IMG/VR virus record: IMGVR_UViG_2579778884_000014
Length of the DNA: 41,415 nt
Strand: one strand, 5' to 3'
Origin: a virus
Taxonomy: Duplodnaviria > Heunggongvirae > Uroviricota > Caudoviricetes
The notes under the pieces are model-generated. The model was not told the DNA's origin, searched no databases, and was given only the letters and a program-made list of their open reading frames with translations. A program made the translations under genes and the position numbers. The stretch's first letter is position 1. Each line of letters begins with the position of its first letter. Positions 35,616 through 37,920 of this stretch are shown piece by piece.

Positions 35616-35837
35616 ATGTCATTTAAATATCGGGACAGTCCGCTTTATTACCGGGCTGCGAGGGAGGCCTTGCGCCTTGAGCAGTCCGGCGAATATGACC
35701 GGGCAGCGAAGGTCTGGGCCAAGGCTAACCGCCAGTCACGTAACGAACTGAATCAGGACTGGAGCGAACGCCGGTCTGATTTTTGTCTGATGCAGAACAT
35801 GCGCGAAAAGCGTAAGGCGGTGAGCGATGACTTGTGA
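35616..35837 (+). CDS. Hypothetical small protein
   Basis: 73 aa from the ATG at 35616 with an AGGAG Shine-Dalgarno 8 nt upstream; the track ORF extends upstream without support. Confidence 0.45.
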   Translation: MSFKYRDSPLYYRAAREALRLEQSGEYDRAAKVWAKANRQSRNELNQDWSERRSDFCLMQNMREKRKAVSDDL

Positions 35838-36309
35838 GCAGACCATTCTTGACATGTGCTGCGGCTCTCGTATGTTTTGGTTCGACAAGGAGGACAAGCG
35901 CGCCGTGTTCAGTGATATCCGCGCCGAGCAGCATGAGCTTTGCGACGGTCGCCAGTTGGTTATAAGTCCGGACCTTATAGCTGATTTCCGCGCCCTTCCC
36001 TTTGCCGATAACACTTTCCCTGTCGTCGTTTTCGATCCGCCGCACCTCGAGCGCGTCGGCGATAACGCATGGATGAGGAAAAAGTACGGGCGGCTCAACA
36101 AAGAAACATGGCGCGATGATCTTCGCGACGGCTTCGCCGAAGCATTCAGGGTATTGCGGCCCCACGGTGTACTCATATTCAAATGGAACGAAACGCAGAT
36201 CCCGGTAAGCAATATCTTGGCGCTGACCGACGAGAAGCCGGCCATATGGCAACGAACCGGAAAAGCCGACAAAACCCACTGGGTTATTTTCGTCAAAGGT
36301 GTGGAATGA
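35827..36309 (+). CDS. Small DNA methyltransferase (phage Dam-like, DPPH motif)
   Basis: 160 aa; SAM-binding motif I-like ...ILDMCCGSRMFW... and catalytic motif IV ...VVVFDPPH... Confidence 0.65.
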   Translation: MTCEQTILDMCCGSRMFWFDKEDKRAVFSDIRAEQHELCDGRQLVISPDLIADFRALPFADNTFPVVVFDPPHLERVGDNAWMRKKYGRLNKETWRDDLRDGFAEAFRVLRPHGVLIFKWNETQIPVSNILALTDEKPAIWQRTGKADKTHWVIFVKGVE

Positions 36310-36602
36310 TGGCCTACGAACGTGAAAGCCTTATCGAAAAGCACCTCGTCGCCGAAGTGAAAAAGGCTGGCGGGGTCGCCTTTAAGTTCGTGTCACCCGG
36401 TCGCCGCTCGGTACCGGATCGCATTGTCCTGCTACCCGGCGGTCGCATCGTCTTTGTCGAATGCAAAGCGCCAAGCAAACCACCACGGCCTGACCAGTTA
36501 CGCGAGCACGAACGGCTGCGCGCGTTGGGCTTTACCGTGGTGGTATTAGATAGCAAAAATCTGGAGGGGATATTGTGCGGGGAGCCTATTACAACGAAAT
36601 AG
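36306..36602 (+). CDS. VRR-NUC domain nuclease
   Basis: 98 aa from an ATGATG start overlapping the upstream stop; ...VSPGRRSVPDRIVLLPGGRIVFVECKAPSKPPRPDQLREHERL... fits the VRR-NUC core. Confidence 0.7.
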   Translation: MMAYERESLIEKHLVAEVKKAGGVAFKFVSPGRRSVPDRIVLLPGGRIVFVECKAPSKPPRPDQLREHERLRALGFTVVVLDSKNLEGILCGEPITTK

Positions 36603-37603
36603 ACCCTAACGCAGCACAATGGCTGCGTAACCTTATTGCTGCAGGTCATATCGCCCCGGGTGAAGTTGATGAAAGGAGTATCGAAGATGTCGCACCAGAC
36701 GACTTGCGCGGATTCACACAGTGCCATTTCTTCGCCGGGATCGGCGTCTGGTCTTATGCTCTGCGTCTGGCCGGATGGCCGGATAACAAACCGGTCTGGA
36801 CAGGAAGTTGCCCGTGCCAGCCTTTCAGCTCGGCTGGTAAAGGCGCTGGGTTTGATGACGAGCGGCACCTATGGCCAGCACTATTCCACCTCATCAGCGA
36901 GCGACGCCCTAAGCTGGTATTTGGCGAACAGGTTGCGGGAGTCAATGCCTGGTTCGATCTTGTACAAACTGACGTGGAAGCAGTGGACTACGCCTTTGGG
37001 CTTGTCCCGTTTCCGGCTGCGGGCGTCGGTGCCCCGCATATCCGAGATAGAGCGTATTGGGTGGCCGACGCCAGCGGCGAGCGATCACAGCGGTGGCGAA
37101 AGCGCCTCAATAGCATTGAGGAAGATGTCTGGAGATCGTCGACCGTCCGGCAACACGCTACACAGCTCCCTGCGGAATTTTGCTCACCTAGCGGGGTGGT
37201 ACACCCCAACCTGCAACACAAACCCACAGCCGGAGACAAAACGCGGTCTAGAAACCTTAGCGGGACTATCCAGATTAGCGGGATGGCCGACAGTGACGAC
37301 GATCGACAACAACCAAGTTCGTGCCGAGGGCGCAGCGGCCAATCATACCGAACGGGGAACGACCCTCGGCGGCGCTGCGAGAATCTGCGGCCCAATACGA
37401 TTAACGGCTGCTGGGATGGTGCTGACTGGCTCCTCTGCCGGGATGGTCGCTGGCGGCCAGTTGAATCCGGCACATGCCCGTTGGCTAATGGGATTACCTC
37501 CAGAGTGGGACGACTGCGCGCCTACGGCAACGCGATAGTCGCACCAGCTGCCGCAACATTCATCCGCTCGTTTATGGAATGCGCAGGATACGACCTTATT
37601 TAA
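36575..37603 (+). CDS. DNA (cytosine-5)-methyltransferase, reading frame uncertain in the middle
   Basis: GTG start with GGAGGGG Shine-Dalgarno; motif I ...FFAGIG..., motif IV ...PCQPFS..., motif VI-like ...GEQV..., motif VIII-like ...HIRDRAYWV..., motif X ...YGNAIVAP.... The overlapping ORF 36636..37538 also looks coding. Confidence 0.7.
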
Positions 37604-37920
37604 TGCCACTCACATCTGGCATGATACCGTCCAGAAGGTAATTGCTTATATACAACGGAGCCGCCCATGGCATAAGTATAAGCATGAAGTTTTGTCCAGA
37701 AGTCCCCATAAACTAGTATTGGGGCTAAAAATTTTGGATCGCTAACCATAGATGTAGCAGGAAGCTCGAAACCTTTAGAAAGAATGTTTACCAGTGAAGG
37801 GTAATTTTCAAAATCAGTGCTATTCCCGCCCACCTCTAAAGCATCCAGTTCAAAGTCGAGCACTCCACCATTTTTGTAATACTCCGGAACAGTTAACCCT
37901 GATGTTAACAAAGTAGCCAT
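37600..37920 (-). CDS. Hypothetical protein, antisense insertion
   Basis: 106 aa with a perfect AGGAGG Shine-Dalgarno 8 nt upstream of the ATG; AT-rich island; convergent with the C5-methyltransferase, 4 nt 3-prime overlap. Confidence 0.6.
   Translation of the reverse strand: MATLLTSGLTVPEYYKNGGVLDFELDALEVGGNSTDFENYPSLVNILSKGFELPATSMVSDPKFLAPILVYGDFWTKLHAYTYAMGGSVVYKQLPSGRYHARCEWH

Follow-up and report, generated by a model that had tools for sequence, protein, structure and literature searches.

A gene that reads as a C5-cytosine methyltransferase in one frame and as a different protein in another raises the question of whether it is damaged, whether one of the frames is open by chance, or whether both are used. 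Such a gene lies at positions 36575..37603, on the plus strand, of the tailed phage record IMGVR_UViG_2579778884_000014 (IMG/VR; Duplodnaviria, Heunggongvirae, Uroviricota, Caudoviricetes), whose 41,415 nucleotides form the window analysed here. A preliminary description of the window had pointed out two long overlapping open reading frames (ORFs), and both are present: frame A, the longer one, and frame B, in the +1 frame relative to A. All of the motifs quoted in it are also found, namely N-terminal methyltransferase motifs and YGNAIVAP in A, and GWPTPA, GWYTPT, GWPTVT, and the end likened to motif IX in B. Sequence comparison indicates that the locus is neither an error nor a pseudogene, and that the same nested pair of frames recurs across a very large phage family. 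It is reasonably probable that one stretch of DNA is read here in two forward frames to give two proteins, both of which are made. Among the causes offered by the preliminary description, an "unusual domain arrangement" comes closest to this result. The reading frames are as follows.

36575..37603, plus strand: frame A, GTG start, 342 aa (ORF list and sequence)
36563-36567, plus strand: Shine-Dalgarno sequence GGAGG of frame A
36636..37538, plus strand: frame B from its mechanically assigned TTG start, +1 frame relative to A, 300 aa
36687..37538, plus strand: gene B from its best start, ATG 36687, to the TAG at 37536-37538, 283 aa, nested within A
36669 (ATG) and 36636 (TTG), plus strand: possible earlier starts of gene B

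Gene B spans 83% of A (283 of 342 codons), on the same strand and wholly inside it. Frame A is annotated by the Prokaryotic Genome Annotation Pipeline (PGAP) as WP_001213772.1, "DNA cytosine methyltransferase", and RefSeq/PGAP lists A alone.

Conservation of the two overlapping frames

Sequencing error, one of the causes considered in the preliminary description, is excluded because identical copies recur among complete Escherichia coli genomes. The 1029-bp stretch is matched in 36 of 5426 such genomes, with at least 99% identity in 20 of these, and 13 of the 15 E. coli genomes among the matches listed are 100% identical to it and come from different laboratories.

Frame B is a separate conserved protein family. 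A tblastn search with it returned 233 phage records, most of which align as a single block along almost the entire query at 41-49% identity, including BcepC6B, epsilon15, N15, and Kagunavirus, as well as phages of Klebsiella, Pseudomonas, Xanthomonas, Rhodobacter, and Erythrobacter. At the protein level, 4187 homologues were obtained at E≤1e-3, none of them with a Pfam domain, and the closest (P0001) is also 283 aa long. The confirmed IMG/VR stretches that encode a relative of B number 595. PHROGs keeps the two families apart, with A falling into phrog_363 and B into phrog_1008 and phrog_31772. The preliminary description had set collinear homologues of frame A, together with a lack of homologues for the other frame, against any change of frame. 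Homologues are indeed collinear with all 342 aa of A (phrog_363 aligns with aa 3-337, E=3e-90), but frame B has its own 4187.

In BcepC6B, epsilon15, N15, K1ind2, and RcIroh, the match to B is the +1 frame of an annotated methyltransferase coding sequence (CDS), and both frames are open in BcepC6B and epsilon15, the two for which ORFs were listed. Three database records annotate the B frame itself as a methyltransferase. A 128-aa "cytosine-specific methyltransferase" CDS of an Erythrobacter phage lies in the B frame, and the GenBank records of K1ind2 (ORFs 987-1916 and 1075-1872, named ORF29/ORF28) and PhiXhv-5 (overlapping CDSs 1014-2033 and 1096-2028) label both members of the pair as "DNA methyltransferase".

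A regular-expression scan recovered both ORFs in 79 of 83 loci, comprising 81 loci from phage and IMG/VR searches, the E. coli copy, and the window. The B motif was unmatched in three of the remaining loci, and in one B is only 107 aa long. These loci had been picked via B, and a second set was therefore picked by A alone. It consists of 80 loci, one genome per species, which are 49-57% identical to A and stem from Gamma-, Beta-, and Alphaproteobacteria and Desulfovibrionales. In 77 of the 80, no stop interrupts frame A up to the GNA motif; in 77, none interrupts the +1 frame between a point ahead of motif IV and "WLMG.P"; and both frames are open together in 77 species. The median length of B in this set is 301 aa, with a range of 240-421. 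At 240-421 codons, such a conserved overlap in a different frame seems exceptionally long by the standards of phage and bacterial genes.

Four loci of the A family (L096, L109, L118, and L141) were found in metagenome-assembled genome bins labelled Woesearchaeota, Peribacteria, Lentisphaeraceae or Mailhella. Their identity to the E. coli copy is nevertheless 51-57%, and they are probably phage contigs mis-binned under labels that do not name the true hosts.

Chance openness, also proposed in the preliminary description, was addressed by permutation tests in which the synonymous codons of one frame were shuffled while its protein and codon usage were kept, those of A to assess the openness of B and those of B to assess that of A. 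Across the catalytic region of A, B is open in 42 of 45 loci against a mean P of 0.13; for the window P is 0.007, the +1 frame remaining open in 0.7% of trials. Frame A is open along its entire length in all 49 dereplicated viral loci; for its own unconserved middle, this compares with a mean P of 0.10, and in the window the middle stays open in 1% of trials (P 0.010). The summed log10 P for the openness of the middle of A is -64, a value that overstates independence because the loci are related. In the third forward (+2) frame, the median number of stops across this span is 18. Chance is thus rejected as the source of the open frames.

Selection along the DNA

An A-guided codon alignment of 53 loci with less than 90% DNA identity reveals how freely the third codon positions of A vary. 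The identity at these positions, by segment of A, is as follows.

aa 4-38, before the start of B: 0.48
aa 39-80, leader of B: 0.46
aa 81-98, dual segment 1: 0.83
aa 126-166, dual segment 2: 0.73
aa 278-294, C-terminal element of A: 0.58
aa 295-308, dual segment 3: 0.96
aa 309-337, tail: 0.43

At aa 295-308 all three codon positions are about 0.8-1.0 identical, and wobble of the A type is seen on both sides, at aa 278-294 and 309-337. A check that does not depend on any protein was made with plain nucleotide alignments to four close relatives, in which mismatches were counted at codon positions 1, 2, and 3 of A.

A-only start: 0, 0, and 20
middle: 59, 20, and 8 (these are positions 3, 1, and 2 of B)
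37391-37511: 17, 12, and 0
tail: 1, 0, and 18

Among these close relatives, the changes at 37454-37500 fall on position 3 or 1 of B and never on position 2. The indels that separate the sequences measure 18, 51, 63, 66, and 117 nt, all multiples of 3. Both A and B are under purifying selection, which alternates along the gene between A only, both frames, and B only.

gene start: A only
motifs IV-VIII: A together with B
middle: B only, with A open yet unconserved and predicted to be disordered
37406-37453: predominantly A
37454-37511: A and B, the latter dominant
tail (motif X): A only

The dominant frame changes at about 37072 and 37511. Frame switches near 37060 and 37515 had been anticipated in the preliminary description, and this part stands, as the canonical motif order can only be read by passing from A to B and back to A; a conserved nested gene had not been considered there. 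Its suggestion of pseudogenisation fails, since hundreds of divergent phages and prophages keep A and B open, with purifying selection acting on each.

The 139 bp at 37398-37536 share 85-87% DNA identity with Burkholderia phages and 82% with an Erwinia phage, much more than the gene does elsewhere. This high identity is explained by both frames being constrained simultaneously.

The internal start signal of gene B

A candidate start signal for the nested gene lies within the codons of A.

36672..36689, plus strand: putative internal ribosome-binding site of B, with AAAGGAG at 36672-36678, an 8-nt spacer, and ATG at 36687-36689

The signal sits in the codons for "ERSIEDV" (GAA AGG AGT ATC GAA GAT GTC), which belong to the conserved "DERSIEDV" of A. 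Among 67 loci of the set picked by A, 57 have the +1 ATG and 43 have GGAG together with the ATG. At this site the choice of codons differs strongly from that in the rest of the same genes.

arginine as NGG: 67% at the start site of B, 32% elsewhere
serine as AGY: 83% at the start site of B, 45% elsewhere
aspartate as GAT: 81% at the start site of B, 37% elsewhere

Within A, a conserved Shine-Dalgarno sequence and ATG are thus available to B, and this putative signal is maintained by biased codon choice.

Frame A: the catalytic chain

Frame A can be divided into three parts.

36575..37072, plus strand: N-terminal catalytic (large) domain, aa 1-166, defined by motifs, AlphaFold2 (AF2), and Foldseek
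37073..37390, plus strand: linker, aa about 167-272, rich in Arg, Ser, and Gly, unconserved, predicted to be disordered, and kept open
37391..37603, plus strand: C-terminal part, aa 273-342, with "NGxWxxADWLxCRDGxWRPVE" followed by "PLxxG...RxGRLxxYGNA" (putative motif X helix)

The Pfam family PF00145 matches aa 76-172 only (E=1.5e-12), and TIGR00675 gives 31 bits, under its cut-off of 100. The recognisable motifs are FFAGIG, PCQPFS at aa 80-85 (motif IV), GEQV at 117-120 (motif VI), and HIRDR at 155-159 (motif VIII). AF2 models the catalytic domain with a predicted local distance difference test (pLDDT) score of about 85-97 (around 90), except for the flexible catalytic loop. Foldseek matches the model to M.HhaI, M.HaeIII, and DNMT2 with a probability of 1.0 and a lowest E of 5e-7, the matches covering no more than about 170-190 columns. 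Across the 53 aligned loci, the amino-acid identity is 0.7-0.84 in the catalytic domain and about 0.1-0.2 in the linker, and the pLDDT falls to about 33 over aa 186-286. No target-recognition domain or motif IX was detected in A by Pfam, TIGR00675 or Foldseek, the matches of which end at aa ~172-190. An alignment of the A family to E. coli Dcm with hhalign likewise returned nothing past motifs IV-VI.

The C-terminal part is conserved again. In 82 homologues W280, D284, W285, C288, D290, W293, R294, P295, Y317, G318, N319, and A320 are invariant, as is YGNAI as a whole (aa 317-321). AF2 predicts a helix at 323-337 with a pLDDT of about 85, and no profile aligns motif X. By its motifs and predicted structure, A is assigned as the large domain of a C5-cytosine methyltransferase (motifs IV, VI, and VIII) with a probable motif X helix at the C-terminus. 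The two conserved parts are joined by a disordered linker of ~105 residues, which selection on A only keeps free of stops.

The N-terminus of A (36575-36760, aa 1-62) shows an unusual motif order that is common to the whole family. A 16-residue segment that TIGR00675 aligns from profile position 27, the motif II region, precedes the glycine-rich, motif I-like aa 51-60, and the strand-helix units in the AF2 model follow the same order of motif II region before motif I. The SAM (S-adenosylmethionine)-binding half may have undergone a local permutation.

Frame B: the nested chain

The layout of gene B, counted from ATG 36687, comprises four parts.

36687..36815, plus strand: leader, aa 1-43, open, variable, without B-specific constraint, AF2 pLDDT <50
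36816..37061, plus strand: N-domain, aa 44-125, with "ASLSARxxKALGLxTSGTxG", dual-coded over motifs IV-VIII of A
37062..37391, plus strand: repeat region, aa 126-235, with three GW(P/Y)T(P/V) modules in the window, only B constrained
37392..37511, plus strand: C-terminal element, aa 236-275, with "PxRLTAxG", resembling the TL motif and motif IX of C5-methyltransferases

The N-domain contains many invariant residues and is predicted to form a helix and a beta-hairpin (aa 68-120, pLDDT 77-85); it has the lowest substitution rate among close relatives, with 0.015 per site. In the repeat region, homologues carry 2-7 GWPTP modules, which in alignments are gained or lost as whole units. The most constrained part of B is its conserved end, "RLT...LNPAHSRWLMGLP.EW", which is motif IX-like. 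It fits the motif IX pattern L-x-P-x4-[RW]-L-M-G-[LF]-P-x-x-W, and its position in the DNA is exactly between motifs VIII and X of A.

A candidate two-chain methyltransferase

A precedent for such an arrangement is M.EcoHK31I from E. coli HK31 (Lee, Kam & Shaw 1995). According to PMC2836561 and PMC3404938, its alpha chain comprises motifs I-VIII as well as motif X plus the target-recognition domain, the beta chain provides motif IX, and the association of the two is needed for activity; internal initiation codons in the beta frame are reported there to be functional. Based on this precedent and on the distribution of the motif order over two frames, A and B are taken as alpha-like and beta-like subunits.

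In the mechanism proposed, B would be translated independently from ATG 36687 and would bind to A. It would supply in trans the small domain, with target recognition and motif IX, which the frame of A lacks, and the active enzyme would be an A-B heterodimer by analogy with the alpha and beta chains of M.EcoHK31I. As for its ancestry, a canonical gene with motifs I-VIII, a target-recognition domain, and motifs IX and X probably underwent two compensating frame changes, and independent initiation of B may then have made the frame-changed gene viable. The N-domain of B and the "WxxADWLxCRDGxW" element of A would have arisen by overprinting. A likely role of the enzyme would be the protection of the phage's own DNA against restriction.

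A wider proposal is put forward tentatively, and it may well turn out to be wrong. The phrog_363 "orphan Dcm" family, which includes epsilon15, N15 gp58, BcepC6B gp33, Kagunavirus, and thousands of prophage copies, might in its entirety be an obligate two-chain enzyme with the recognition subunit in the +1 frame of the catalytic subunit. Gain and loss of modules (2-7) could then retune or multiply specificity; the catalytic chain would be left untouched, because the modules fall in the disordered linker of A.

Several results weigh against this two-chain interpretation. Pfam and NCBIfam find no match in B, and Pfam detects nothing in B when it is part of the natural A-B fusion P0018 or of an artificial, hand-made A-B-A chimera. 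With this fusion, the chimera, and two alternative C-termini, no additional match to motif IX or X appeared, a result that does not discriminate between the possibilities. An hhalign comparison of the B family with E. coli Dcm gave nothing, and a profile search of PDB sequences with B, either whole or as its C-terminal 45 aa, gave no match at E≤10. HMMER aligned the end of B to residues 248-286 of M.HhaI with a weak and non-significant score of -3.7 bits. AF2 models B alone with low confidence (pLDDT 59), and Foldseek found no fold match for this model beyond noise (cyanase, single-stranded DNA-binding protein (SSB) hairpins). The likeness of B to motif IX is therefore a resemblance at the level of a sequence motif, without statistical support. 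The division of roles also departs from the published description of M.EcoHK31I, in which the target-recognition domain is part of alpha and beta provides motif IX only, whereas the region between the motifs of A is unconserved and disordered. Finally, about a third of the loci lack GGAG at the conserved site, so that B may have a different start in these.

Alternative explanations

The same negative results feed the alternative that survives best, which is nevertheless considered unlikely. B would be a genuine overprinted gene with a function unrelated to methylation, for example in anti-defence, DNA binding or regulation, and A would be self-sufficient, with its "WxxADWLxCRDGxWRPVExGxxPLxxG" serving as a minimal target-recognition region and motif IX. 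Apart from the missing domain and fold matches of B and its statistically unsupported motif IX likeness, this explanation is favoured by the conserved element that A retains in its own frame where motif IX is expected, and by PGAP and most annotators taking A as a complete enzyme. It is at odds with the occurrence of B, among everything examined, solely within genes of the A family, and with the fit of its best-conserved segment to the motif IX pattern at a site between motifs VIII and X of A. An unconserved and disordered middle is also difficult to reconcile with a self-sufficient A. Moreover, the only precedent for a chain nested in a C5-methyltransferase gene, M.EcoHK31I beta, is described as a methyltransferase subunit (PMC2836561).

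Programmed ribosomal frameshifting is quite improbable. A +1 shift near 37060-37075 and a -1 shift near 37505-37515, or the first of these only, would yield a single canonical chain, and the long open frames would be by-products. The A-B-A path, as the only one to restore the canonical motif order, speaks for this possibility, as do natural fusions of the N-terminal part of A to the C-terminal part of B by a single indel (P0015, P0017, P0018, and L171; ~20 of the top 150 representative clusters). Frameshifting leaves unexplained, however, the B-specific constraint upstream of the shift, where the third positions of A across motifs IV-VIII are 0.83 and 0.73 identical, and the wobble specific to A at aa 278-294, a segment that the ribosome would be reading in frame B. 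Nor does it account for the openness of A through its middle in 49 of 49 loci or for the conserved Shine-Dalgarno sequence and ATG of B. On either side of the junctions, constraint acts on A as well as on B, and neither junction shows, on inspection by eye, an X XXY YYZ heptamer, a stop prone to shifting or a rare-codon site. The fusion variants amount to ~1% of clusters, and in L171 a single indel simply swaps the frames and leaves the motif X part stranded.

Sporadic natural frame swaps (P0014, P0015, P0017, and P0018) join the N-terminal part of A to the C-terminal part of B at three different junctions, or the N-terminal part of B to the C-terminal part of A. In L171 (1312-2516; complete genome CP185201.1), one indel produces an ORF that fuses the N-terminal part of A to the C-terminal part of B, a truncated ORF for the N-terminal part of B, and an orphan ORF for the C-terminal part of A. 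Such variants may be sequencing errors or dead copies, or else natural experiments in which some function is left. The idea that the fused form is the normal one was considered and rejected: in a search with P0018 for a relative that has all motifs in one frame, the full-length matches stop at the stop codon of B without motif X, and L171, when traced, proved to be the one-indel swap just described.

Sequencing or assembly error, decay of the gene through two frameshifts that compensate each other, and frames open by chance in GC-rich DNA can practically be dismissed. In their favour are the local G+C content of about 59% in the middle region, which lowers the frequency of stop codons, and the sporadic frameshifted copies elsewhere. 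Against them stand the identical E. coli copies, an arrangement kept down to ~40% identity in phages of Alpha-, Beta-, and Gammaproteobacteria, the permutation results and the stops in the +2 frame, and substitutions that keep to frame-specific codon positions.

Genomic setting of the gene pair

The locus belongs to the replication module of a prophage integrated beside yfhL. The neighbouring genes of this module encode a DNA polymerase, DUF2800, DUF2815, Nmad5, a class I SAM methyltransferase, VRR-NUC, SNF2, and an integrase. Two of these genes directly precede A, and one gene follows it.

35827..36309: short class I SAM-dependent methyltransferase gene, just upstream of A
about 36309..36602: VRR-NUC/PDDEXK nuclease gene, the 3' end of which overlaps the start of A by 28 nt
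37600-37920, minus strand: ORF of 106 aa, convergent to A with stops overlapping by 4 nt, a hypothetical protein in RefSeq

The Nmad5 "nucleotide modification" gene lies farther upstream in the same module. The second methyltransferase and the nuclease that adjoin the C5 enzyme may be functionally linked to it.

Novelty and significance

Literature searches returned no account of a second gene overlapping, or overprinted on, the methyltransferase gene in this phage family. The principle itself has been known since M.EcoHK31I, and the GenBank records of K1ind2 and PhiXhv-5 already list both ORFs. Most phage records, like RefSeq/PGAP, call frame A only. For annotation, the result means that a conserved protein of ~280-400 residues has been missed in thousands of genomes or left as a "hypothetical protein" without a Pfam domain. 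If B is the recognition subunit, A expressed alone would mislead on activity and specificity for a whole family of phage methyltransferases, enzymes that matter for escape from restriction and for reading the methylomes of lysogens.

The family also represents a large and deeply sampled natural data set on same-strand dual coding, in which A-only, B-only, and dual segments can clearly be told apart, codon choice preserves a putative internal ribosome-binding site, and selection acts on a linker for its openness only. Should the two-chain reading be true, it would be a natural case of specificity evolving in one frame while the other merely stays open. Naturally split C5-methyltransferases serve as platforms for targeted methylation (PMC2836561), and a widespread split family would provide new parts for this purpose.

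Comparison with known systems

With the monomeric C5-methyltransferases M.HhaI, M.HaeIII, and Dcm (PF00145), A shares the catalytic fold, motifs IV, VI, and VIII, and probably motif X. In contrast to them, the only motif IX-like sequence lies in the other frame, in B. Two-polypeptide C5-methyltransferases occur naturally, as exemplified by M.AquI, which is split into alpha and beta in the variable region (Karreman & de Waard 1990, as cited in PMC3404938). According to that account the split differs from the one observed here, where motif X stays on the catalytic chain and the second gene is nested instead of consecutive.

Embedded genes are also known from other phage functions. As in lambda Rz/Rz1, mentioned in PMC9409062, a same-strand gene is embedded in another frame, is kept across phages, and the two products would cooperate. 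Rz1 has ~60 codons and an unrelated function as a spanin, whereas the gene embedded here has 240-421 codons and selection alternates between the frames.

The closest parallel is M.EcoHK31I, as far as its published description allows the comparison. In both cases a second polypeptide is encoded wholly inside the first gene, on the same strand and in another frame, and in both the large chain carries motifs I-VIII, together with motif X or, in A, a probable motif X, without a detectable motif IX. A likeness between the 43-residue leader of B and a 42-residue N-terminal deletion of M.EcoHK31I beta was dropped from the comparison, as the deletion is inconsistently described in PMC2836561. The reported beta chain carries motif IX, while B has a motif IX-like end without a significant profile or structure match. 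M.EcoHK31I is described as belonging to a restriction-modification system; the A/B gene is part of a prophage replication module, with no nuclease partner identified. Unlike the published beta chain, B holds variable repeat modules and an additional conserved N-domain, and the division of labour between the two chains differs from that in M.EcoHK31I.

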